Source: Thermoflexus hugenholtzii JAD2 (GTDB lineage Bacteria > Chloroflexota > UBA11872 > UBA12225). From it: 64,000 nucleotides of DNA. This document shows positions 4,417-53,909 of the stretch, piece by piece (positions within the stretch are counted from its first letter, which is position 1; each line of letters opens with the position of its first letter). Under the pieces are notes generated by a model. The model did not search any database and was not told where the DNA came from. It saw only the letters and a program-made list of their open reading frames with translations. The stretch spans positions 3,455 to 67,454 of the forward strand of contig CAMDTO010000002.1 in NCBI GenBank assembly GCA_945907765.1, written 5' to 3'. The position numbers and the translations under genes were made by a program.

Positions 4417-5805
4417 CTAACCAGCTGCAAGCGGGACCCCAGACCCGGCCGCATTTGATCTCGCATGCCCGTTGCAGTACGCCTCGAACTCGGGCCGGAA
4501 AAGCCGCAAAGCCGACGCAACCGAATTGACCGAGAAGTCACCGAGGGCGCACAGGGTCTTGCGTCCACCGATATTTCTCGTCACATCCTCTAGGATGCCT
4601 AGATCGCGCGGACGACCGTGCCCATGCGCAATCCGGCTCAGGACATCCTGCATCCAATGGGTGCCCTCACGGCATGGCACGCACTTTCCGCAACTCTCGC
4701 GGGCAAAGAACCCGGCCGCCCGCGCAACAACCTGCACGATGTCGGTCTCCTCACCATAGACAATGATTCCCCCGGCACCAAAACCCACTGGCCCGAAAGG
4801 CGGATGCCAGTGAGGAGGCCTCGTCAGGGTCGCGGTATCCATCTGGACGTTGAGGTCGGTTCCGGGTAGTAGTTGGCAGGCAAGCGCCCCGGGGCTTACC
4901 GCCTTCACTGTCTGGTTCCGCTTCATGCCACCGGCGTACTTGTAGATGAGGTCGTACAGCGTGGTGCCCATCGGCAGTTCATACACGCCAGGACGATTGA
5001 CATGGCCGGAGATCGTATATAATTTTGGCCCCGGACAAGCCGGGGCACCAATACTTGCGAACCACGCCGCTCCACGAACGAGGATGTGGGGGACACACAT
5101 CAAGGTCTCGACGTTATTGACCACCGTCGGACGTCCAAACAGGCCACCACCAACCTCGATCGGAAAGGGCGGCCGGATTCGCGGTTGCGCGCGACGGCCT
5201 TCAAGGCTCTCCATCAGCGCGGTTTCCTCACCGCACACATACGCCCCAGCCCCACGCGTGACCGAGATATCAACATCGAACCCCTCCTTGCCGAGGATGT
5301 TCCTGCCGATGTACCCAGCTGCGTAGGCTTCCTTGATGGCGTGCTCAAGCACCTCAGCGCCGTATAGGTTCTCGCCCCGGATATAGATGTACGCCTGCTG
5401 TATGCCTACCGCGAAGCAGCAGACAAGCATGCCCTCGATCAGTCCATGCGGGTCCGCGTCGATCGCGTAGCGGTTGCCGTACGTGCCCGGTTCAGACTCG
5501 TCAGCATTGACGACAAGGTGCCGAGGCCCGGGATTTCGCTTCGTGCCACCCCACTTCACCCCGGTCGGAAACCCCGCGCCACCACGTCCCAGTAGCTTGC
5601 TATCACTAATTTCCTTGATGACCGAGACAGGATCCATCTCCTGCACGGCCTTGGCAAGACCCTGATACCCGCCTCGCAACAGATAGTCTGGAAGGAAACG
5701 TCCCCCTTTGCGACCGACAGCGGTCATGAGAACCGGTTCCCACGGCAACGGCTGACCAGCACCATGCTGGATGGGCGCATCAGCGGCGGGTGGCGTCTGG
5801 GTCAT
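4417..5805 (-). CDS. nuoF: NADH-quinone oxidoreductase subunit F (NADH/FMN-binding)
   Basis: GRGGAGFPTGVKW, NADESEPGT, and the ESCGKCVPCREG 4Fe-4S motif. Confidence 0.95.
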   Translation of the reverse strand: MTQTPPAADAPIQHGAGQPLPWEPVLMTAVGRKGGRFLPDYLLRGGYQGLAKAVQEMDPVSVIKEISDSKLLGRGGAGFPTGVKWGGTKRNPGPRHLVVNADESEPGTYGNRYAIDADPHGLIEGMLVCCFAVGIQQAYIYIRGENLYGAEVLEHAIKEAYAAGYIGRNILGKEGFDVDISVTRGAGAYVCGEETALMESLEGRRAQPRIRPPFPIEVGGGLFGRPTVVNNVETLMCVPHILVRGAAWFASIGAPACPGPKLYTISGHVNRPGVYELPMGTTLYDLIYKYAGGMKRNQTVKAVSPGALACQLLPGTDLNVQMDTATLTRPPHWHPPFGPVGFGAGGIIVYGEETDIVQVVARAAGFFARESCGKCVPCREGTHWMQDVLSRIAHGHGRPRDLGILEDVTRNIGGRKTLCALGDFSVNSVASALRLFRPEFEAYCNGHARSNAAGSGVPLAAG

Positions 5806-9039: not shown

Positions 9040-9416
9040 GCTTCCCACTCCAACGCGCGCTTCTTCCAGATATAGACGTAGCCAAGCATCAGGAATCCGG
9101 CGAACACCGCCATCTCCCCGAGGGCAAACAGAACGTAATCGGTGCCTCCAACCCGGAGGTGGCGCAGAATGACCATCCACGGCACGAAGAAGATCACTTC
9201 AACGTCGAACAGGACGAACAGCATCGCCGTGAGGAAGAACTTGATAGGGAACCGTCGCCACGCCTGGCCGACTGGCGTCATCCCACACTCGTAGGGAGCG
9301 AGTTTCGCTGCCGTCGGACGCTTGGATCCGACAAAGTTCGAAATAACGATTACCCCAATCGCGATCGCGAACGCCACCAAGATCTGAATCAGGATTGGCA
9401 CATAATCGAAGGCCAC
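9036..9416 (-). CDS. nuoA: NADH-quinone oxidoreductase subunit A
   Basis: Three-TM protein with the KLAPYECGM motif. I prefer the GTG at 9416, preceded by GGAGGGAG, over the track start at 9473. Confidence 0.85.
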
Positions 9417-9575
9417 CCTGGTGTTCTCCCTCCGGACTTCAGCCAGGACCTGGCAGGGAACTTCCCACCACATCGCGCCGCCGTCATGTCAACGCCCCGG
9501 ACCTGCAGTGCAGCCGATTGCGTGAGAGCGATGCTAGCGACGCGGTTGGTCACCCGTCAACCCGGACCGTTGACC

Positions 9576-9597
9576 CTTTGTGCAGTTCTTCACAAAG
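9576..9597. promoter_or_regulatory. Rex-operator-like inverted repeat in the nuoA upstream region
   Basis: CTTTGTG-N8-CACAAAG is a perfect inverted repeat. Its core, TTGTGCA-GTTC-TTCACAA (9578-9595), compares with the Rex consensus TTGTGAA-N4-TTCACAA. It lies about 160 bp upstream of both divergent genes. Confidence 0.45.
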
Positions 9598-9759
9598 TCT
9601 ACCGCTTCCAACCCCGGCGAGTCTTACTCACCTGTCCCGTCGCAACTCCACTCGGCGGAGGCGCAGTCTCGCGCAACTCCCGAAACGTGACCACAGCCAG
9701 TTGCACGCGTGAGGAGGTTACACTCGGATCAGGTTCGTCAAGATAGAGGATTGCCCCCG

Positions 9760-10938
9760 ATGCCTGCCGTGTATCTCGATCACGCCGCGACCACCCCTGC
9801 TCGTGCCGAGGTCATCGAGGCAATGGCGCCGTACTGGACGGATATCTCCGGCAATCCTTCCAGCATCTACGACGCCGGCCGAAATGCCCGTCACGCAATT
9901 GACGCCGCCCGTGACTCGGTCGCAGCCGACCTCAAGGCGCGTTCGTCAGAGGTCATCTTCACCAGTGGTGGAACCGAGAGTGACAATGCGGCCATCAAGG
10001 GCGTCGCATTCGCGTCGATGCACCGAGGCAAGCACCTCATCACGACAGCCATCGAGCATCACGCAGTACTGCACACATGCGAATGGCTTGAGCAATTCGG
10101 GTTCGAGACAACCTACCTACCCGTAGATGGGTACGGCATGGTCAGCCCCGACGATGTCCGCAAGGCAATCAGGCCCGATACCGTCCTGATCTCCGTGATG
10201 TACGCGAACAACGAAGTCGGGACGGTGCAGCCACTCGCCGAGATTGGACGGATTGCCCGCGCCTCCCGAATACCGTTCCATACCGACGCAGTTCAGGCAC
10301 CAGGACTACTGTCCATCGACGTCAGCTCTCTCGGAGTTGACCTCCTGTCTCTGTCCGCGCACAAATTCTACGGACCGAAAGGCACTGGGGTGCTGTACGT
10401 CCGGAGCGGAACCCGTTGGCAACCGCAACAGAGCGGTGGCGCTCAGGAACGCAACCGCCGTGGAGGCACTGAGAACACGCCCGGGATTGTCGGGCTAGCC
10501 ACCGCACTGCGTCTCGCCGTGAATGAACGCCCTGCGACCATTGCCCATGTCAAACCGCTACGGGACGATCTCATCCACCGCATGCTCGACACCGTCGGAG
10601 ATTCCCGCCTGACTGGCCACCCGACCGAACGGCTTCAGAACAACGCCAGCTTTGTGTTCAGGCAAGTCGAAGGCGAGAGCATCCTGCTGAGCCTCGACAT
10701 GGCGCAGATTGGCGCATCCAGCGGATCTGCTTGTACATCCGGCGCCACCGAGCCGTCGCACGTGATCACCGCACTGGGATTGCCATCAGACTGGGTGCGC
10801 GGTTCTCTTCGCCTCACATTGGGACGAACGTCATCTCCCGAAGCCATAGATGCCGTGATGAGGGTGCTCCCTCCAGCACTCAGCCGTCTCCGCGCGCTTT
10901 CACCGGGGCGAGTGTCCGTCCCCACCGCGACATCGTGA
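9760..10938 (+). CDS. Cysteine desulfurase (IscS/NifS-like, class V aminotransferase)
   Basis: VYLDHAATTP, the PLP lysine in SAHKFYGPKGTGVLYV, RRGGTENTPGIVG, and the active-site SSGSACTSG. Start taken at the ATG giving MPAVYLDH; the track ORF starts at 9709. Confidence 0.9.
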   Translation: MPAVYLDHAATTPARAEVIEAMAPYWTDISGNPSSIYDAGRNARHAIDAARDSVAADLKARSSEVIFTSGGTESDNAAIKGVAFASMHRGKHLITTAIEHHAVLHTCEWLEQFGFETTYLPVDGYGMVSPDDVRKAIRPDTVLISVMYANNEVGTVQPLAEIGRIARASRIPFHTDAVQAPGLLSIDVSSLGVDLLSLSAHKFYGPKGTGVLYVRSGTRWQPQQSGGAQERNRRGGTENTPGIVGLATALRLAVNERPATIAHVKPLRDDLIHRMLDTVGDSRLTGHPTERLQNNASFVFRQVEGESILLSLDMAQIGASSGSACTSGATEPSHVITALGLPSDWVRGSLRLTLGRTSSPEAIDAVMRVLPPALSRLRALSPGRVSVPTATS

Positions 10939-44302: not shown

Positions 44303-45751
44303 TTACTCCGACCGAGGGACCGCGCCAACGAGTTCCGTTCCGGCTGCTACCGGCTCGACAATCAGTGTCAGTCCCCACCGATCCGTCACCCGGATCGCTT
44401 GCCCACTCTTCATCGTACCCGCAATCGCACGTCCACTCCATACCTCGCCCCGGACGCTCACCGTTCCACCCGGTACAAGCGCGGTGATGGCAACACCCGT
44501 TTCACCGGGAAGAGGCATCGCCGTCCGCGCAGGGCGCCCGACCGTCCCGATCGCTTTCCCGACGACAAGACCGGTGGAAACCGCCAGGAAACCGACAGAT
44601 CCGATCATGATCAGCGGGTTCAGGCGTGCCGGCACACCGCCCACCGTCGGGCCGGAATCCGGGAAGAGCCACCAACTCCCAAGCGCGATCGCCATGACCC
44701 CACCGACGGCCAGCATCCCGTGTCCTCCGGCCTTCAGTTCCGCAACCAGGAGGCTCACCCCCAGTCCGAGCACTGCAACCGCACCTTTCTCAACCGGGAG
44801 GCTGTTAAATCCCATCAACGCCAGGACAAGGCAGATCGTGCCGACCAGACCGGCCGCCCCGCCTGTCGCTGCAAAGACCTCCGACCCGATCAAGACAAGG
44901 CCGATGAGGCAGAGCAGGTAGGCCACCACCGGTTGGGCGACAATCGCCAAGGTCAACTCGGCTAGCGACGGTGAAATCTCGACAATGACCGCATCGCGCG
45001 TGCGTAACGGCCGGTCGCCCCAGGGGCCGGCAACACGACGCCCATCTAGCTGAACAAGAGCGTCTTCCAGGTCCGAAGCGACAAGTTCAACAACCCCAGC
45101 CCGCAACGCGTCGGATGAACCAAGAACCACACTCTCTCGCACCGCACGTTCGGCCCATTCGGCGTTGCGTCCGCGCTGAATGGCCAACCCACGGATGTAA
45201 CCAACCGCGTCGTTGGTGACCTTCTCCATAATGACAGGGTCGATTGGGATCACCATTCCGCCCTCGACTGCAACCGGGTGAGCCGCACCCATGGTCGTTC
45301 CCGGTGCCATCACCGCCACGTCGGACGCAAGAACGATGAAGGTGCCAGCCGAAGCCGCCCTCGCACCGGAAGGTCCAACCATGACGATCACCGGAAGCGG
45401 CGCACCGAGGAGGCGTTGGACAATCTCACGCATTGAGACGTCGAGCCCCCCGGGAGTGTCCAGCAAAATGACTAGGGCCTCTGCATCACGACGTTCCGAC
45501 GACGTAACAACCCGTTCGACGTATTGGGAGACGGCCGGGTCAATCTCGCCGACCACCCGGGCGACGACAACCTCGCGAACCGAGGCCGACTGTGCACTCA
45601 CAGGCAGACCTGACCAACCGAGGAGAGTGACCACGGCCACAGCGATGATCGCAACGCCGGCTAACGACCGCACAATGGGCGTCACGAACCCAATCAAGGC
45701 GCGTGTGCGAACAGAAACGGTGTCACACGGTGTCACTTCGCACCCTTCCAT
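44303..45751 (-). CDS. NfeD-like membrane-bound ClpP-class serine protease (long form)
   Basis: ClpP-like domain (LLDTPGGLDVSMREIV...ARAASAGTFIVLASDVAVMAPGTTMGAAHPV), a TM bundle and a C-terminal OB domain. The upstream part of the track ORF (to 46138) overlaps the divergent epimerase and was trimmed, so the start is uncertain. Confidence 0.8.
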   Translation of the reverse strand: MEGCEVTPCDTVSVRTRALIGFVTPIVRSLAGVAIIAVAVVTLLGWSGLPVSAQSASVREVVVARVVGEIDPAVSQYVERVVTSSERRDAEALVILLDTPGGLDVSMREIVQRLLGAPLPVIVMVGPSGARAASAGTFIVLASDVAVMAPGTTMGAAHPVAVEGGMVIPIDPVIMEKVTNDAVGYIRGLAIQRGRNAEWAERAVRESVVLGSSDALRAGVVELVASDLEDALVQLDGRRVAGPWGDRPLRTRDAVIVEISPSLAELTLAIVAQPVVAYLLCLIGLVLIGSEVFAATGGAAGLVGTICLVLALMGFNSLPVEKGAVAVLGLGVSLLVAELKAGGHGMLAVGGVMAIALGSWWLFPDSGPTVGGVPARLNPLIMIGSVGFLAVSTGLVVGKAIGTVGRPARTAMPLPGETGVAITALVPGGTVSVRGEVWSGRAIAGTMKSGQAIRVTDRWGLTLIVEPVAAGTELVGAVPRSE

Positions 45752-45979
45752 CCGTTTCCATCCTGGTACGAGTATGGGCGCACCACGGTGGCCGGTCAAC
45801 TGCTCACACGTACGAGCGCATCCATGTGCTGCGTCCACCCCGCCTGGGGGGGGTGAGGCACGGCGGGCAGGGACCAGCATGGAACGCGGTCGCGCATCGG
45901 CCGTGTCCTCTTGCCAGTTTCTGGTTACGCGGAACATGAAGTCCCTATTTGAACCGGCCCACGTCGCCGGGCAAGGTTT

Positions 45980-47161
45980 ATGGTGATGACCGAAGGCCAA
46001 CTCAACGCCATGACCCGACCTGCGACCGGCCAGACGGTCATCGTTACCGGCGCTGCCGGATTCATCGGCAGCCACACAAGTGAGGCACTGCTCCGGCGTG
46101 GTGACAATGTCGTGGCAATCGACTCCTTCACGCCCCACTACAACCCCGTACGCAAGCAGGCCAATCTGGCATCGGTCCAGGCAACCGCCGACGCAATCCG
46201 TCGTGCCCTCGGCCCGTCATCACCCCAGTACACATTTCTGGAGGCCGATTGCTGCCGCGCAGACGACCTTGACCGGGCATTCCAGATTGGCGCCACGTTC
46301 AGTGCAGGCTGGCCGGTCCGGCGGATGATCCATCTGGCGGGACGTGCCGGCGTCCGTGCGCCAGCCAGTGAAGCACCCAACTACGTCGCGATGAACGTAG
46401 TGGCCACAACCGAGATCCTGGAAGCCTGCCGGAGACACGGCTTCGGCGACACGGCCGGTTCTGGTTTGCCTGGGGATCAGGTAGTGGAAGGGCAGGGCCA
46501 ACCGCTCGTCGGGCACCTTGCGATGGCTTCAAGCAGTTCGGTCTACGGCGGGGGGCCACCAGGGTGGGACGGACCTTTCCATGAGAATATGGCCGCCGAC
46601 CGTCCACTTTCGGTCTACGCCGCTACAAAGCGTGCAACCGAAGTGATCGCCCACGCATACACCCGAGTCTCAAACGTGCGTGTCACCTGCCTGCGCTTTT
46701 TCACCGTTGTCGGCCCGCGTGCCCGCCCTGATCTCACCCCATCAATTTTCGGACGTGCCATCTGGGAAGGACGCCCGATCACGCAGTTCGGTGACGGTTC
46801 AATGGCTCGCGACTACACATTTGTCGGTGATACGGTCACCGGCCTCCTCGCATCACTTGACCGTTTCGAGCGAGCGAACGCGGGCATCGTGGCACACGGT
46901 GACGACTACGAGGTCATCAATCTGGGAAACGACCGTCCAATAACGCTCTCCTATTACCTTGAAACCCTTGCCGGACTCCTCGATCGCACACCTGTGATCA
47001 ACGAAGTCCCGGTTCCGCCATCCGAACCCATGCGTACCTGGGCCGATCTCTCAAAGGCGCGACGCCTCCTCGCGTATGCCCCGACAACACCCTTCGAGGA
47101 AGCGCTTGCGTCGTTCATTGATTGGTATCGCGCCACAATCCTTGAACCACCGGTGGCCTGA
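45980..47161 (+). CDS. NAD-dependent epimerase/dehydratase (extended SDR, UDP-sugar 4-epimerase-like)
   Basis: Rossmann motif VTGAAGFIGSH, SSSSVYG, and the catalytic YAATKRATE (YxxxK). Confidence 0.85.
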   Translation: MVMTEGQLNAMTRPATGQTVIVTGAAGFIGSHTSEALLRRGDNVVAIDSFTPHYNPVRKQANLASVQATADAIRRALGPSSPQYTFLEADCCRADDLDRAFQIGATFSAGWPVRRMIHLAGRAGVRAPASEAPNYVAMNVVATTEILEACRRHGFGDTAGSGLPGDQVVEGQGQPLVGHLAMASSSSVYGGGPPGWDGPFHENMAADRPLSVYAATKRATEVIAHAYTRVSNVRVTCLRFFTVVGPRARPDLTPSIFGRAIWEGRPITQFGDGSMARDYTFVGDTVTGLLASLDRFERANAGIVAHGDDYEVINLGNDRPITLSYYLETLAGLLDRTPVINEVPVPPSEPMRTWADLSKARRLLAYAPTTPFEEALASFIDWYRATILEPPVA

Positions 47162-47276
47162 TCTCACCAGACCCACTTGGACTGGTACATCGGTACAGTC
47201 TGTGCGATATCCCATCCTCCTGCCGCTTCAGGGACATTGGCAAACCATCGGTGCCAGTGCGACGATATCGGTACGC

Positions 47277-47738
47277 ATGACGGACCGAACTGCCAGACGT
47301 AACCCACAATCGACCCCCCCGGCACGGCCAATGACCTTGAGACCGCACGCGATTCTCATTGGTGTGGCCATCAGCTATCTCTTGCAAGTAGGTGGGGGAT
47401 ACCTCGCGGCCACACAGGGCATCGTCCGTGACCCCGGAGCGGAACTCGGCGGTGACTTCAGCGCCCTCCCAATCCTGCAGTTCGGCACGATCTTCATCGG
47501 CGGATACCTGTCAGGTCGAATCGCGGGCGTGGCAGGGTTCATCAATGGCATTGCCGTCAGTGTTGCGTTCATCCTCATCTGGGCCGGTCTGAACGCGTAC
47601 AACGAATCCAAGCTCGTTGAAGAGTTCGGCCCCCTTGTTCTCCCCCCGATGAACATGGGCGGGATTGTTCTGGGCGATATCCTCAACCTGTCAGCTGGCG
47701 CCTTCGGTGGATGGCTTGCCGACCGTTGGGGTCGGTGA
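47277..47738 (+). CDS. Small glycine-rich membrane protein
   Basis: About 153 aa with 4 hydrophobic Gly-rich segments. Trimmed from the track ORF (47076), which overlaps the epimerase 3' end. Confidence 0.55.
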   Translation: MTDRTARRNPQSTPPARPMTLRPHAILIGVAISYLLQVGGGYLAATQGIVRDPGAELGGDFSALPILQFGTIFIGGYLSGRIAGVAGFINGIAVSVAFILIWAGLNAYNESKLVEEFGPLVLPPMNMGGIVLGDILNLSAGAFGGWLADRWGR

Positions 47739-49250: not shown

Positions 49251-49298
49251 GTCCGTCAGTCCGTCAGTCCGTCAGTCCGTCAGTCCGTCAGTCCGGCA
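49251..49298. repeat. 8-bp tandem repeat array (GTCCGTCA x5 perfect, plus 1 degenerate GTCCGGCA)
   Basis: Read directly from the sequence. The array starts at the base after the glyA stop codon. Confidence 0.95.
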
Positions 49299-49361: not shown

Positions 49362-52300
49362 TTGGTCGGGCATCCGTGTCCTGTACGTTGCGTCGACCGG
49401 GTGCCGAGCGCGTCCCGGCGATTCGGTGGGAATGTGACCTACACTACCGATGTGGTTTCACTATTGGGCATGAAAGCCAGCGGATCGCTCCCACGCCGTC
49501 GTGAGGCGATGGATGACGATGCGACCGTTACCCAATCAGTCACGACCATTACCGAATACACTGAAGAAGCTGCACCCGCTGTCGCCACCCTCTGGCGCGA
49601 GAGTGCGGTTGAGTGGCCCGGTGGAGGTCCATTCGGGGGGCGGCACGCCACAACTGAAGGCGTGCGACACGAATTGCGTGGCAATCGACCGCTAACCACC
49701 TTTATCGCTTGGAGACCTGACCGGGTCTCAGGGGAACCTCGTGCCGTCGGGTTTCTGTCGCTCATTGCCCAGCCAGAGGATCCGACCGCGACCTACGTTG
49801 GTCTCCTGACGGCCCATCCCGAATGGCACGGGTTCGGTGTCGGGCGTGAACTCCTCACCGCGGCACTTGATAGAACCGTGTCACTCGGGTTCGACCGCAT
49901 CGACTTGCACACCTGGTCGGGCAACCTCAAGGCGATGCCCCTCTACAAGAAGACCGGGTTCTTCTGGGTGCCAGACACGTCCGTGCGCATGGCGAACTTC
50001 CTGCCATTGCTGCTGAAGATCGGTCCGGTACGCGACTACTTCGATCAGACCGGAGCGGATTGGTACCGCGACGCGGTCCGTGAACTCGACGTCACGCCTG
50101 ATCGGGAGAAGTTTGGCAGCGCCGAGGTCTACACCTACGAATGGGTCCGTGAAGGCCACACCCTTCGCACCCGCATCGACCGTCACGCGAATGCCCTGCT
50201 CACGCTTGAGACACCGAATCTATCGATTGATGTGAGCCTTGACGATACGAGGCTGCCAATCGGCACCACACGTCACTTGGGCGTACACATTTCAGTGCCA
50301 ATCGGCGCGATGGACGTCTCCGCAACGATCGTTGCCACCGGCGAAGGCGCCGTCCGGGCAAGCCACCAAGCCAATCGCACCATAACCGCCGGCGACAACG
50401 GCTCCTGGACATGGCCGGTCAGTGGCACAATCGGCAGCCAGTCGAAACCTCGGCCCGGCACCACATCTCCCGACGTGATGCGCGTCCTTGCGATAGTCAA
50501 CGAGACGCCAATCAACTTCGCAGCTGCGGTTCGGGTAGTGCCTCCAGTGAGCCTAAGCGTCGAGGATGTCAACCCGCTCACCCCGGGCACCTCTCGCACC
50601 ATCTGGGTGACCGCACAAAATGAACTCGACATTCCTGTGGAGGCAACGACCCGGGTAACTGTCTCCGGGCCGTTCGCCGTGGATGTCGCCACTCGAACCA
50701 CGACGATCATCGCCCGAGGGCGCTATTCATTCCCCGTAAGCCTCACCGCGAACGGCAGCGGCGATGGATCGTTGCAACTGGTCGGCGAAGTCGCCGGAGC
50801 GGAGCAAGGCACGCCGACCAGCAATGCGGATGCTGGGGTTACCACGTCTTCAGCCGAGTTCGCCCCTCCGGTCTTCATCCCGTTGCATGCGGGTCCGACC
50901 GGATCACGCTTTGTTGAACAGACCGAGGCACACGTCCGTGTCATCACAGATGACCTGATCGTCACGGCACCGCTCCCAAGCTCCGGTTGGCAGCCATCGT
51001 TCACCGTCGTCGACCGACATACCGGAAACGAACTATTACGTCATTCCTGCGGCCTTGGTCCGCCATTCGCCCCATCGGCAATCAGCAATTGTTCATGGAC
51101 ACCCCACATCACGCGGGATGAAACCGGCCTGACCGTCGCACTTCGCTCGCAACCCGAACGCATCGCCGGCGTGACCTTCGAGCGCCTAATCCGGCTCGCG
51201 GGCAGTTCGATGCTTGAAGTCCAGTACCGCCTTGTCAATGGTTCATCGTCGGAGTGCACGCTTGAAGTCAGTGCGGGAACCTCTGCCGAACTGGATGGCG
51301 TCCGGCAGTCTCAGATTGCGTGTGTTGTCGACGGCACGGTCATTGTCGATGAGAGTGACCGCTTCCCGGACTGGGACGACCCGTCAGGTGGAGCGTCACA
51401 TCTTTCCGAACCCTGGATTGCCGAGTTTGGCGATGGAATGGTCGTCGGCGTGATCTGGTCCGATGCACGCGACGTGACCAGTGACAACCGTTTGGCCGAA
51501 CTCATCCTGCCATTCGGGACGGTCGCGCCCGGAGGCTCTGCCACGACCGCACCAATCGGCCTCTATGCCGGGGCCGGGGACTGGCATACCGTCCGCTCCC
51601 GATGGCGCTCACTGTTCTCGAGCCAGTCATCCTCTGCGGACCAAGTTGGCACAAAAAACCACACGTCATCGGCCGCACATCCGTCAATTGAGATTACTCT
51701 CGACCGCGCCTTCGTCGCCGGCAACCACGTCTCCTCCAACGTGACCGTCAGCCACGTAAACGACGACCCGATGACTGGGTACCTCATCCTCGATACACCA
51801 ACTGGCACGGCCGATATTGGCGAGGTCACCACACGAGGTTCCGGAAACCCGGTCATCGTGCCCGTGACACTCGCCTTGCCAGACTGGGGCGCCACTGGTT
51901 GCTCGGCATTCCCGGTATCCGTGAACCTCGCGACCACCGAGACGACCTACCGTTTCCCGGTTCCGCTGGTTCGGGTTGGCGATGGCAGACCAGTTGAGGT
52001 AACCATCGGCGATATCGAGCAGCACGGTGGCGTGACACGCCAGACCGTCACACTCGACACAGGCCGGATGCGGGTTCGTGCCATCCCTACAGAACGTGGC
52101 CGTATCTATGCCTTGGAAACCCCGTCACATCCGTCTTACTTCAGGGCAGGGGACAGTGCCCGCCCGTCGATTGAGCAGGACTGGGTAAACCACCTGTTCA
52201 GCAGCGTTCCCGATCCGAAACCATGGGTATGGTTCAACCCTTGGTACGGCGGGGTGTCCGTGCACCTGAGAGACGGCGGATGGCACTCCGGTACAACGTG

Positions 52301-52898
52301 CCTTGACCACGCAATGTGGGAATGGCATCCCGTGGCATCCCGCCGGGGTGGTGTCTTGTGGAATGGATTCACGACGACCGCGACGGTTGATGCGTCAAAG
52401 GTTCCACCGGATCAAGCCCGCCTTGTTGGCCTGTCCGTTACCACAACCTATCTGGTTGCCGGTGGCGGGACGACGCTTGCCATCGAAACCACGGTCACCA
52501 ACGGGACCCAATCCCGCCTTCATTCCAACTTGACGCTTGGCACCTACCTGCAACCGGGCGGAAGTGTCAACGATGTTGTTGTGCACTACCTGCGCCACGG
52601 GGAGCGGAGCCGCGCACGTGCCCACGGGACCCTCTGGTCCACGACCGAAGGGTGGATTGCCGTTGCATCAGGAAATGCCGGACCAGCATTGACCATCGTC
52701 AGCAGTGATACCCGCGCGCGGATGATGTGCGGAGACATGGGTCTCCTCGGCGTACATCCATTCATTGCGTCCGACATCGATCTGGTACCGGGTGCCTCGC
52801 AAATGTCTACCACCTACATTGCCGTGGCACGCGACCTCGACGAAGCGCGCGCATACCGGCCCCTGGTTGGAACCGCGCTTCCTTTGGCGAATGCCTGA
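49362..52898 (+). CDS. Giant GNAT-family acetyltransferase fusion protein (GNAT domain plus about 950 aa of unassigned beta-rich sequence). Start uncertain (ATG at 49470 or 49509 likely)
   Basis: GNAT core FIAWRPD..AVGFLSLIAQ..VGLLTAHPEWHGFGVGRELLTAALDR...MPLYKKTGF (acetyl-CoA motif A). The rest has no motif I recognise. It is a single uninterrupted ORF. Confidence 0.8.
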   Translation: MVGHPCPVRCVDRVPSASRRFGGNVTYTTDVVSLLGMKASGSLPRRREAMDDDATVTQSVTTITEYTEEAAPAVATLWRESAVEWPGGGPFGGRHATTEGVRHELRGNRPLTTFIAWRPDRVSGEPRAVGFLSLIAQPEDPTATYVGLLTAHPEWHGFGVGRELLTAALDRTVSLGFDRIDLHTWSGNLKAMPLYKKTGFFWVPDTSVRMANFLPLLLKIGPVRDYFDQTGADWYRDAVRELDVTPDREKFGSAEVYTYEWVREGHTLRTRIDRHANALLTLETPNLSIDVSLDDTRLPIGTTRHLGVHISVPIGAMDVSATIVATGEGAVRASHQANRTITAGDNGSWTWPVSGTIGSQSKPRPGTTSPDVMRVLAIVNETPINFAAAVRVVPPVSLSVEDVNPLTPGTSRTIWVTAQNELDIPVEATTRVTVSGPFAVDVATRTTTIIARGRYSFPVSLTANGSGDGSLQLVGEVAGAEQGTPTSNADAGVTTSSAEFAPPVFIPLHAGPTGSRFVEQTEAHVRVITDDLIVTAPLPSSGWQPSFTVVDRHTGNELLRHSCGLGPPFAPSAISNCSWTPHITRDETGLTVALRSQPERIAGVTFERLIRLAGSSMLEVQYRLVNGSSSECTLEVSAGTSAELDGVRQSQIACVVDGTVIVDESDRFPDWDDPSGGASHLSEPWIAEFGDGMVVGVIWSDARDVTSDNRLAELILPFGTVAPGGSATTAPIGLYAGAGDWHTVRSRWRSLFSSQSSSADQVGTKNHTSSAAHPSIEITLDRAFVAGNHVSSNVTVSHVNDDPMTGYLILDTPTGTADIGEVTTRGSGNPVIVPVTLALPDWGATGCSAFPVSVNLATTETTYRFPVPLVRVGDGRPVEVTIGDIEQHGGVTRQTVTLDTGRMRVRAIPTERGRIYALETPSHPSYFRAGDSARPSIEQDWVNHLFSSVPDPKPWVWFNPWYGGVSVHLRDGGWHSGTTCLDHAMWEWHPVASRRGGVLWNGFTTTATVDASKVPPDQARLVGLSVTTTYLVAGGGTTLAIETTVTNGTQSRLHSNLTLGTYLQPGGSVNDVVVHYLRHGERSRARAHGTLWSTTEGWIAVASGNAGPALTIVSSDTRARMMCGDMGLLGVHPFIASDIDLVPGASQMSTTYIAVARDLDEARAYRPLVGTALPLANA

Positions 52899-52901
52899 AC
52901 G

Positions 52902-53909
52902 ATGCCCGAGACCACCGCGATCATCTACAGTCCACGCCACCGCGAACACCAACCGCGTATCGAAGTCCTGTATGGCCGCCACACGCCACACCCCGAGCGA
53001 CCCGAGCGGGTCGAGGCGATCAGATTGGCCATCGCGGGTTCTCGCTGGGAACACACGGTTCGAGGCCCGTCATCATTCCCGATCGTGATCGCGACATCGG
53101 TGCATGAACCCGCCTACGTGGCGTTCCTGCATGAACACGCTGACCTTGCCGCCGAGGAGGGTCTGGATGGCGAGTGGTTCCCTTACACGTGGCCTCGCGA
53201 CCGTGGGCTCGATCTGGGCACGCCCATCTCCAAACACACGGTTGATCTGGCGTGGCACTCCGCCGAATGTGCCCTGACCGCAGCAAAGGTCGTCCGCGAC
53301 GGCGCGCCGTGGTCGTTCTCCATCGGCCGTCCACCCGGTCACCACGCGTCCGTCGGGGCGCACGGAGGCTATTGCTACTTCAACCATGCTGCCCTAGTCG
53401 CCCAGTCGTTCCTTGATGCGCCCTCAATGACGGGACGCACGGCCGACCGCGTTGCGATCCTCGACCTCGATATCCACCACGGCAACGGCACCCAGGACAT
53501 CTTCTACGCCAGTGACCGGGTCTTCTACGCCAGCATTCATGGCGAACCGGACTGGGCATACCCGCCTCACTCAGGCTTTGCGGGCGAGACGGGAACGCGC
53601 GCCGGTAGCGGTGCAAACTACAACCAACCGTTGCCCATCGGGACCGGATGGCGCGAATATTCCCATGCACTTGACCGCGCGTTCGATCGCATGGCGCAGT
53701 TCGATCCGTCGCACCTGGTGGTCTCGCAGGGGTTCGATACCTTTTCCGGCGACCGTTGGGGAGGCTTCGAACTCCACGCACCCGACTACGCCCGCATTGG
53801 CGAACGCCTGCGCACCTTCGGCCGGCCAATCGTCATCATCCTTGAAGGGGGCTACGAACCGGCGAACATCGCCGCCGGCACTATGTCCCTTCTGGACGGC
53901 CTCGCCTGA
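52902..53909 (+). CDS. Histone-deacetylase-family (arginase-fold, Zn-dependent) deacetylase, AcuC/acetylpolyamine-amidohydrolase-like
   Basis: GRPPGHHA, YCYFNHAA, LDLDIHHGNGTQDIFY, ILEGGYE. The ATG lies 3 nt after the upstream stop. Confidence 0.9.
   Translation: MPETTAIIYSPRHREHQPRIEVLYGRHTPHPERPERVEAIRLAIAGSRWEHTVRGPSSFPIVIATSVHEPAYVAFLHEHADLAAEEGLDGEWFPYTWPRDRGLDLGTPISKHTVDLAWHSAECALTAAKVVRDGAPWSFSIGRPPGHHASVGAHGGYCYFNHAALVAQSFLDAPSMTGRTADRVAILDLDIHHGNGTQDIFYASDRVFYASIHGEPDWAYPPHSGFAGETGTRAGSGANYNQPLPIGTGWREYSHALDRAFDRMAQFDPSHLVVSQGFDTFSGDRWGGFELHAPDYARIGERLRTFGRPIVIILEGGYEPANIAAGTMSLLDGLA

Follow-up and report, generated by a model that had tools for sequence, protein, structure and literature searches.

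A widespread long GNAT-family protein paired with an ApaH-related zinc deacetylase in one Chloroflexota lineage

The window analysed here, a 64,000-nucleotide stretch of a Thermoflexus hugenholtzii JAD2 contig, contains two adjacent open reading frames, confirmed in the ORF listing at 49362..52898 and 52902..53909, the first encoding a long protein with an N-terminal GNAT domain (hereafter the long GNAT) and the second a deacetylase. Both lie on the + strand, as do all features described below, and the gene 3' of the deacetylase is convergent. The junction reads TGA ACG ATG, just as the initial annotation had it, placing the deacetylase ATG 3 nt past the long-GNAT stop. The same annotation took the first protein to be 1178 aa; an ORF of that length is present, but its TTG at 49362 is a mechanical ORF start and an unlikely initiation site, given the length of a homologue (P0002, 91% identical and 1142 aa, matching a start at ATG 49470), a GAGG preceding ATG 49509, a family consensus that begins ~9 residues ahead of the first GNAT strand, and the disorder of residues 1–22 of the 1142-aa version in an AF2 model. 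The true start is probably ATG 49509 or ATG 49470, yielding 1129 or 1142 aa, with 49509..52898 (1129 aa plus stop) the most likely coding range; residue numbers for the domains refer to the 1142-aa version. In the intergenic region between an SHMT gene and the long GNAT, TRF identified an octamer tandem repeat, GTCCGTCA x5.6 (49251..49295), which has only 1.6 copies in two MAG contigs (L001 and L011) that are 99% identical and which probably lies within the leader or promoter of the two-gene unit. Neither protein matches a PADLOC defence protein model at E <= 0.01.

The N-terminal domain (49542..50054, residues 25–195) is an acetyltransferase of the GNAT type: Pfam PF00583 (Acetyltransf_1) scores 47.8 bits where the curated cut-off is 20.7 (E 2e-12) and recurs in 41/41 members of the family alignment, AF2 predicts an α/β domain, and profile searches of the PDB return 2ge3 (3.6e-10) followed by PaiA (4.7e-8). 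The acetyl-CoA P-loop, motif A, is defined as R/Q-x-x-G-x-G/A (PMC8556138); here it reads WHGFGVGR (within WHGFGVGRELL), with H in place of R/Q, G-x-G retained, and G121 and G125 nearly invariant. The conserved C-terminal Tyr is Y159, in PLYKK, and the invariant columns of the domain comprise L146, T148, W149, N152, Y159, K160 and G163. The weak NCBIfam matches are divided among WecD (35/41 members, the most frequent), RimI (34/41) and PaiA (16/41), and all fall far under the curated cut-offs (27 bits vs 219–250).

Downstream of this domain the protein is an all-β chain of ~940 residues, across which Pfam detects a single weak match (YidC_periplas, 1.2e-5). An AF2 model built from the 41-sequence alignment (pLDDT 84.6, pTM 0.80) places this scaffold confidently in one compact body, and, together with hhalign, bears out the serial β-sandwich modules suggested by the initial annotation. 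Two β-sandwich/Ig-like domains come first (50082..50804, residues 205–335 and 336–445), related to each other at 87% probability; the first, which adjoins the GNAT domain, has polar and aromatic positions that are conserved in the family (D211, Y223, D237 and R238), and the Ig-like region weakly matches a YfhM macroglobulin MG domain, with FixG_C and NPCBM_assoc matches in some members. There follow a supersandwich of galactose-mutarotase/YidC-P1-like type (50862..51629, residues 465–720), the location of the YidC_periplas match, with conserved GPPF, N590, E647 and W649; a second Ig-like region recognized in the AF2 model (51681..52139, residues 738–890; 84% probability against the first); and a second supersandwich (52146..52895, residues 893–1142) with an invariant WFNPWYGG, homologous to its predecessor (hhalign 93%).

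The supersandwich fold is typical of carbohydrate enzymes. When modelled separately (pLDDT 87.7), the second of these domains is matched by Foldseek to YidC P1 (3blc, 2.8e-7), GalM (4bze, 3.4e-7; TMq 0.53) and GH36 N-domains at TM 0.45–0.55, in agreement with the carbohydrate-type fold anticipated for the Trp/Gly-rich C terminus. The fold is common to the two supersandwich domains of the scaffold, GalM, the periplasmic P1 domain of YidC and the N-domains of GH36/GH2/GH38 enzymes, but the scaffold belongs by sequence to neither the aldose epimerases nor the glycosidases and contains no catalytic glycosidase domain: none of the 41 family members matches Pfam Aldose_epim, and GalM is only ~10% identical to the second supersandwich in structural alignment. 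By Pfam, AF2 and Foldseek, the C-terminal ~940 aa map to no known enzyme family, and in the literature searched we found no description of a GNAT fused to a mutarotase-like supersandwich. The scaffold domains are acidic (pI 4.8–5.7). A signal peptide and transmembrane segments are lacking, as initially noted (maximum KD19 1.48, acidic N terminus), and the long GNAT is predicted to be cytoplasmic in the reading that we propose.

Far from being an unusual giant fusion, as first supposed, the long protein is a member of a widespread, unstudied family with a fixed architecture—GNAT, Ig-like sandwiches and two homologous galactose-mutarotase-like supersandwiches—in which the partner of the scaffold is always a GNAT domain and nothing else. 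At 50% identity the family resolves into no fewer than 900 clusters (911 counted), and its members occur in a minimum of 538 species genomes, which span many bacterial phyla as well as archaea and include cultured Paenibacillus and Fictibacillus. Databases give it no name beyond 'GNAT family N-acetyltransferase', Pfam has no model for the scaffold, and our search found no literature on the family.

The second gene (52902..53909) encodes an HDAC-family, ApaH-related Zn deacetylase of 335 aa (Pfam Hist_deacetyl, 4e-65). An arginase-fold enzyme with apparently intact signature motifs had been noted, and RPPGHH (residues 143–148), DIHHGNG (190–196), GFD (277–279) and EGGY (315–318) are all found; the catalytic set, consisting of H147/H148, the Zn ligands D190/H192/D279 and the catalytic Y318, is invariant in our alignment (A6). 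RPPGHH and EGGY, likewise invariant there, mark acetyl-specific enzymes (PMC11532494). Its closest matches are to ApaH and HDAC6 rather than to class I enzymes, with the cluster-4 APAHs PsApaH (9gkz, 3.2e-62) and Mycoplana ramosa APAH (3q9b, 3e-54) foremost in the PDB; alignment to these shows the His pair, the Asp/His/Asp Zn site, the Tyr and both acetyl-specific motifs in common, and an N-terminal L1 region that aligns gap-free. The two known enzymes, however, have an L2/PSL extension of ~20 residues, which in ApaH forms the head-to-head dimer and shuts peptides out of the site, and a PIS motif at the pocket entrance (PMC11532494), whereas here this polyamine-specificity loop is short, with a gap of ~15–21 residues relative to PsApaH and ApaH-like sequences (P0266–P0296), and PIS is replaced by R285-W286-G287 (GDRWGGF). 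The gap is common to the whole deacetylase orthologue group. By sequence comparison, the enzyme is closest to the cluster-4 ApaH polyamine deacetylases, without their polyamine-specificity loop.

Such a relationship raises the idea that the pair forms a polyamine acetylation/deacetylation module, comparable to SpeG or PaiA plus ApaH, that would control free polyamine pools or permit acetylpolyamine use. We regard this as unlikely. Among proteins of solved structure, those most closely related to the deacetylase are indeed polyamine deacetylases, and polyamine activity among bacterial deacylases is found in cluster 4 only (PMC11532494); the rank of PaiA among the structural matches of the GNAT domain, the weak PaiA-model matches, the acidity of the scaffold, and an APC-family permease upstream of the long GNAT in one locus (L092) point the same way. 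Yet the two features in which the deacetylase departs from ApaH are those that define substrate access in that enzyme, the polyamine acetyltransferases known so far are small and have a single domain, the GNAT family-model scores lie far short of their cut-offs, and polyamine biosynthesis genes are absent among the neighbours of the pair.

Without the L2 loop, peptides should be able to reach the deacetylase site, and PsApaH itself already deacetylates peptides and AcsA (PMC11532494), both of which would suit a protein lysine acetylation switch like AcuA/AcuC or Pat/CobB, with the β-scaffold as a substrate-docking or regulatory module and the long GNAT as one more architectural class among the protein acetyltransferases of bacteria. 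The large multidomain GNATs of bacteria (types I–III) act on proteins, and the type II enzymes, such as Streptomyces lividans PatA, match the long GNAT in overall size and layout, with ~200 aa of N-terminal GNAT and a C-terminal region of ~900 aa (PMC8556138). The type II region consists of an α/β domain resembling an NDP-forming acyl-CoA synthetase but inactive, whereas here it is all-β, Ig-like and mutarotase-like, and no NDP-forming acyl-CoA synthetase-like Pfam family, the trait of Pat-like type I/II enzymes (a fused domain of ~700–900 aa), occurs in any of the 41 long-GNAT members. The frequent weak RimI matches, and the presence of Ig-like and YidC-P1-like domains, which often mediate protein contacts, are consistent with a lysine switch; but no candidate target gene, acsA or other acetyl-CoA synthetase included, adjoins the pair, and the patchy distribution of the family and its stand-alone context single out no regulated pathway. 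A switch of this kind also seems to us improbable.

How often the two genes occur together bears on whether they share any substrate at all. A long GNAT lies directly upstream in 19/19 loci carrying a deacetylase orthologue (a group defined at >=53% identity, the next relatives dropping to 44%), and the orthologue group was never seen without one; no long GNAT adjoins the HDAC relatives of 42–44% identity. Conversely, an HDAC is found near the long GNAT in 0/61 loci outside a single Chloroflexota clade, counting those with enough downstream sequence. The two genes are therefore neighbours elsewhere, as the initial annotation had proposed to survey, but the pairing is confined to one Chloroflexota lineage. 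No neighbour or partner is universal across the family either. From both results it follows that the acetyltransferase can, in general, do without an eraser beside it.

Inside the clade, conservation extends to further neighbours whose connection to acetylation is not apparent (a beta-eliminating lyase, PlsY, and often SHMT and Der), and this synteny makes inherited gene order a live alternative: a long GNAT that stands alone, as it does in most lineages, would sit beside an unrelated housekeeping deacetylase with no substrate in common. We hold this to be a serious possibility, though short of probable. Related short-loop HDACs of Thermotogae, which occupy housekeeping operons (RpiB-HDAC-PrmA) without a long GNAT, accord with it. 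Under inherited order the long GNAT would probably N-acetylate a sugar or glycoconjugate amine held by the mutarotase-like domains, in keeping with their carbohydrate-enzyme fold, with WecD as the commonest weak match and with sugar-related neighbours scattered over other lineages (GH130, GH28, sulfatases, GFO_IDH_MocA, gluconolactonase-like and PfkB, with Amidohydro_2 in Bacillota), although such neighbours are few and vary from one lineage to another. The adjacency has, however, outlived rearrangements on both sides: upstream flanks vary among SHMT, an HTH gene plus small ORF, and the APC permease, and flagellin or Amidase_3 is inserted downstream of the deacetylase in some loci, but never between the pair. 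The 3-nt spacing itself is not conserved, gaps ranging from 2 to ~340 nt (~200–340 nt in L002 and L014), yet the 2–7 nt of several members suggests co-translation.

The initial annotation knew of no characterized system matching an acetyltransferase–deacetylase unit with so large a scaffold. Joining the two activities in one operon has a precedent in Bacillus subtilis acuABC, a bacterial writer/eraser acting on AcsA, which encodes the GNAT acetyltransferase AcuA together with AcuC, a deacetylase of the classical Zn-dependent HDAC type (PMC8556138). The present pair differs in its transferase: AcuA is a small GNAT, whereas the long GNAT has ~1,130 aa with a 940-aa β-scaffold. In addition, AcuC is class I-like and the present deacetylase ApaH-related, and acuABC adjoins its target gene acsA. 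We view the pair as uncharacterized enzymes, not as a new kind of system.

Our preferred reading, put forward tentatively, is that in one Chloroflexota lineage the long GNAT of this widespread family is co-transcribed with a dedicated ApaH-related Zn deacetylase and shares a substrate with it. Uninterrupted adjacency despite differing flanks supports this coupling. The mutarotase-like domains and weak WecD-like similarity count against it, pointing to sugar amines, which HDAC-family enzymes are, to our knowledge, not known to deacetylate; and the adjacency may reflect nothing beyond gene order passed down within a shallow lineage. It is nonetheless plausible that the pair couples acetylation and deacetylation in the clade, because every deacetylase locus adjoins a long GNAT. 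In the mechanism that we infer, the GNAT domain would move acetyl from acetyl-CoA onto a primary amine; the all-β platform of Ig-like sandwiches and duplicated supersandwich would choose the acceptor, whose site is probably completed by acidic and aromatic residues conserved in the first sandwich; and the deacetylase would hydrolyse N-acetyl amines of that class. The substrate would most likely be an aminoalkyl group of lysine-side-chain or polyamine type, with lysine in proteins or peptides no less likely than free polyamine because the deacetylase is missing the loop by which ApaH excludes peptides. Together, the two enzymes would set the acetylation state of their shared substrate.

The long GNAT gene, 49362..52898 (+), and the deacetylase gene, 52902..53909 (+), lie exactly where the initial annotation had placed them, on a chromosomal segment of ~61% GC; their TGA-ACG-ATG junction is confirmed, as is the absence from both products of a hydrophobic segment or signal-like N-terminus. 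The nearest public match among those listed, Chloroflexi MAG CH-Oct18-156, shares 99% protein identity across the long ORF. Relatives of the deacetylase show a sharp break in identity, from at least 53% to 44%, and in every locus of the group above that break (n=19: 9 from the GNAT-side survey, 2 from the HDAC-side survey and 8 from metagenomes, some being near-duplicates) a long GNAT gene stands immediately upstream on the same strand, so the adjacency first noticed here recurs elsewhere. Several further paired loci beyond the 19 are suggested, and a metagenome scan for additional deacetylase orthologues returned 9 loci only, mainly close relatives. HDAC relatives at 42-44% identity lack a long GNAT. 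Seen from the other side, the association is limited to long GNATs that share 35% identity or more with the one in the window: relatives at about 31% identity or less have no HDAC within 6 kb, including 61 loci whose sequence continues for at least 1.5 kb downstream.

Upstream of the pair the flanks differ, comprising SHMT, an HTH gene with a small ORF, or an APC-type permease, and flagellin or Amidase_3 genes are inserted 3' of the deacetylase; no insertion ever falls between the two genes. In the most divergent paired locus, L092 (GNAT 35%, HDAC 53% identity), an APC-superfamily permease gene (AA_permease_2; L092:29-2065) precedes the pair and an Amidase_3 gene of the N-acetylmuramoyl-L-alanine amidase type (L092:7223-8785) follows the deacetylase. 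Translational coupling, as proposed from the window alone, is not a conserved property, since the two genes are separated by anything from 2 to about 340 nt. Nor is a GNAT plus deacetylase unit without parallel, as had been supposed: acuABC is already known as an operon of this kind (PMC8556138). For the single Chloroflexota clade in which the two genes are paired, the best single explanation, which we advance tentatively, is a functionally coupled acetyltransferase and deacetylase acting on one amine class. Second, and slightly less probable in our judgement, the adjacency might simply be inherited, with the two enzymes independent; the clade also conserves neighbours without evident link to acetylation, namely a beta-eliminating lyase and PlsY, often together with SHMT and Der.

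The TTG at 49362 is a mechanical ORF start only. We favour initiation at ATG 49509 or ATG 49470, because the homologue P0002, at 91% identity, spans 1142 aa, GAGG lies upstream of ATG 49509, the family N-terminus is short, and residues 1-22 of the 1142-aa version (to which residue numbers below refer) are disordered in its AlphaFold2 model. Directly 3' of the SHMT stop codon, at 49251-49295, stand 5.6 perfect tandem copies of the octamer GTCCGTCA; in L001 and L011, MAG contigs with 99% identity, the array is 32 bp shorter, at only 1.6 copies, and the copy number in the long-GNAT leader is thus variable. With the repeat shorter, the upstream frame is open in L001, where P0001 (1220 aa, L001:10001-13663), the publicly annotated homologue with 99% identity, begins 47 nt within the SHMT gene and is called ~80-90 residues too long. 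No riboswitch or other RNA was found in the leader or the whole window, no Rfam family reached its gathering score anywhere in the 64 kb (1-64000), promoter and terminator scans gave nothing exceeding shuffled expectation, and neither of the two proteins matched a PADLOC defence model.

Two other regions of the window deserve mention. Between the epimerase and SHMT genes, a 220-aa ORF at 47076-47738 (+) has no Pfam match and has homologous ORFs in 11 related loci; two loci, L004 and L091, carry at that position an HTH_3 (XRE) gene and, after it, an ORF of 152-158 aa, likewise without a Pfam match. At 44303-46138 (-), a mechanical 611-aa NfeD ORF has its first Pfam match only at residue 190 and overlaps a 231-aa ORF at 45291-45986 (+) without a Pfam match; as NfeD homologues are called at 482-522 aa, the true start probably lies further within that ORF, and the plus-strand ORF is probably not genuine.

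The deacetylase is a full-length Hist_deacetyl domain (Pfam, 4e-65) whose signature motifs looked intact in the initial annotation; on inspection its catalytic residues are intact (H147/H148, D190/H192/D279, Y318). Among solved structures it is nearest to the cluster-4 acetylpolyamine amidohydrolases (PsApaH 9GKZ, 3.2e-62; M. ramosa APAH, 3e-54), HDAC6 domains ranking after the ApaH structures, and it carries both RPPGHH and EGGY, the signature motifs of acetyl-specific enzymes (PMC11532494). Polyamine specificity in ApaH enzymes is described as governed by a PIS motif and an extended L2 'polyamine-specificity loop', through which the enzymes dimerise head-to-head and which shuts peptides out of the site (PMC11532494). 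In the deacetylase this loop is shorter by about 15-21 residues and RWG stands in place of PIS; the deletion is common to the whole orthologue group and to related Thermotogae enzymes, and is not seen in ApaH-like sequences at about 40% identity. Judged from its sequence, the enzyme is ApaH-related, but we do not class it as a polyamine deacetylase. Its ApaH ancestry, together with weak PaiA/SpeG similarity of the GNAT, favours polyamines as the substrate, if not decisively. Lysine is favoured, again not decisively, by loss of the occluding L2 loop and by the precedent of large multidomain GNATs acting as protein acetyltransferases (PMC8556138).

The closest relatives outside the orthologue group, Pseudothermotoga-like proteins at 42-44% identity (L094:6001-6966 and L095:6001-6969), also lack the L2 loop and lie in a housekeeping gene string of LexA, STAS, RpiB and HDAC; in L095 a PrmA-type methyltransferase gene comes next, with overlapping starts and stops. 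Separately, the metagenomic protein P0273 (340 aa, from a 1,074-nt contig), which shares 89% identity with a portion of the window deacetylase, combines GNAT-type (PF13480, PF04339) and Hist_deacetyl Pfam matches; its possible origins are read-through, a frameshift artefact and a genuine fusion where the two genes meet.

In the long protein, Pfam detects a GNAT domain above cut-off (PF00583, 2e-12) and, over the remaining ~940 residues, just a weak YidC_periplas match (1.2e-5); no Pfam model spans this scaffold in any of 41 family members. An AlphaFold2 model built with 41 homologues is confident (pLDDT 84.6, pTM 0.80) and resolves an alpha/beta GNAT domain (residues about 25-195), two beta-sandwiches (205-335 and 336-445), a first large sandwich (465-720), a further Ig-like region (738-890) and a second large sandwich (893-1142). 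Profile-profile comparison finds the two large domains homologous (93% probability) and the small sandwiches mutually related (84-87%); the scaffold has thus grown by internal duplication. Whole-chain Foldseek searches of the PDB found no whole-chain relative, the only matches (TM <=0.18) being generic multi-Ig proteins (alpha-2-macroglobulin, complement and ciliary proteins) and beta-galactosidase, and a single domain was therefore modelled and searched instead. Foldseek aligns this C-terminal domain (pLDDT 87.7) with the periplasmic P1 domain of YidC, the galactose mutarotase of B. subtilis and GH36 alpha-galactosidase N-terminal domains (E about 3e-7, TM 0.45-0.55), in agreement with the sequence-level YidC_periplas hint on the middle domain; the 'supersandwich' reading of this Trp/Gly-rich region was right at the level of fold. 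Checked against known enzyme families by Foldseek, Pfam and PDB profile search, the scaffold is identified with none by its fold. The family profile finds only GNAT domains among PDB sequences, plus a weak macroglobulin MG-domain match, and GNAT similarity to WecD, RimI, PaiA and MshD falls well under every curated cut-off. Sugar amines are a third substrate class, favoured, equally without being decisive, by the mutarotase-like domains, by the weak similarity to WecD and by sugar-related genes scattered among the neighbours.

Far from being a one-off giant fusion, the long GNAT belongs to a large family, with 46 full-length relatives of 1,000-1,220 aa in a word-indexed search and at least 538 relatives in a scan that took one genome for each GTDB species. 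Hosts among the relatives listed include bacteria (Chloroflexota, Armatimonadota, Bacillota, Latescibacterota, Planctomycetota, Rubrobacter and several candidate phyla, with cultured Paenibacillus, Fictibacillus and Cytobacillus among the Bacillota) and archaea (Thermoplasmata, Theionarchaea, Hadarchaeota and Bathyarchaeota). RefSeq names them nothing beyond 'GNAT family N-acetyltransferase', and literature searches on the architecture, the family or the GNAT-deacetylase pairing returned nothing specific. A profile of the scaffold alone, with the GNAT left out, run against 1.84 billion representatives, matched 911 clusters at E <= 1e-3 and 488 at E <= 1e-30. The scaffold begins at residue about 175-190 in every full-length match, so that a GNAT-sized N-terminal domain always precedes it; shorter matches are fragments, and this profile found no scaffold without a GNAT or joined to another catalytic domain. 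Type II Pat enzymes likewise join an N-terminal GNAT to a C-terminal region of about 900 aa, but theirs is homologous to NDP-forming acyl-CoA synthetases, and a domain of that kind was looked for in the long GNAT and not found.

A census of first and second neighbours at about 75 long-GNAT loci revealed no family-wide partner, with ABC transporters at about the rate expected by chance; recurrent sets are lineage-specific, namely HDAC (6), Amidohydro_2/TatD (6, Bacillota only) and DUF4097 (3). In Fictibacillus, Paenibacillus and Cytobacillus, a metal hydrolase resembling Amidohydro_2/TatD (about 285 aa) follows the long-GNAT homologue (1,028-1,039 aa) on the same strand after 17-44 nt (L072:9109-9960, L080:9104-9964, L082:9107-9967, L086:9137-9991, L089:9157-10011 and L090:9101-9955), a second lineage-specific pairing with a hydrolase. 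Amidohydro_2 members are mostly lactonases and decarboxylases and counts are small, and we therefore did not adopt the idea of alternative erasers arising by non-orthologous displacement (Amidohydro_2 in Bacillota, the L008 Polysacc_deac_1, and Cyclase and M20 in other loci). In L008, from an Actinomycetota MAG, the long-GNAT homologue lies between two genes (4755-5726 and 9164-10180): one, divergent, encodes a CE4-type deacetylase (Polysacc_deac_1), and the other, downstream, shows a weak M23-peptidase match. These neighbours hint that its context in that lineage is the cell wall or a glycan.

The pair is not a categorically new system; what is new is a widespread all-beta scaffold architecture and, limited to one lineage, its loop-less ApaH-type partner. 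Bacterial GNATs that carry large additional domains have until now been assigned to a handful of architectures, each with a regulatory domain that binds nucleotides, cAMP or amino acids. The fullest reading, which we consider unlikely, is that the family represents an unrecognised acetyltransferase architecture of bacteria and archaea whose duplicated mutarotase-like beta-platform would capture a macromolecular or glycan-bearing substrate, and which in the clade would form a physical writer/eraser complex with the loop-less deacetylase, giving reversible scaffold-directed N-acetylation of a substrate class for which such regulation is not yet known. If the two enzymes share no substrate, the outcome is one more unannotated GNAT family beside an ordinary deacetylase. 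The family adds a conserved architecture, an all-beta, carbohydrate-enzyme-like platform in hundreds of species, and is directly testable because it is present in cultured Paenibacillus and Fictibacillus. The deacetylase, lacking the polyamine-specificity loop, offers a natural test of that loop's role in substrate choice, and its strict, clade-specific co-occurrence provides a substrate handle: whatever it hydrolyses is a candidate product of the long GNAT.
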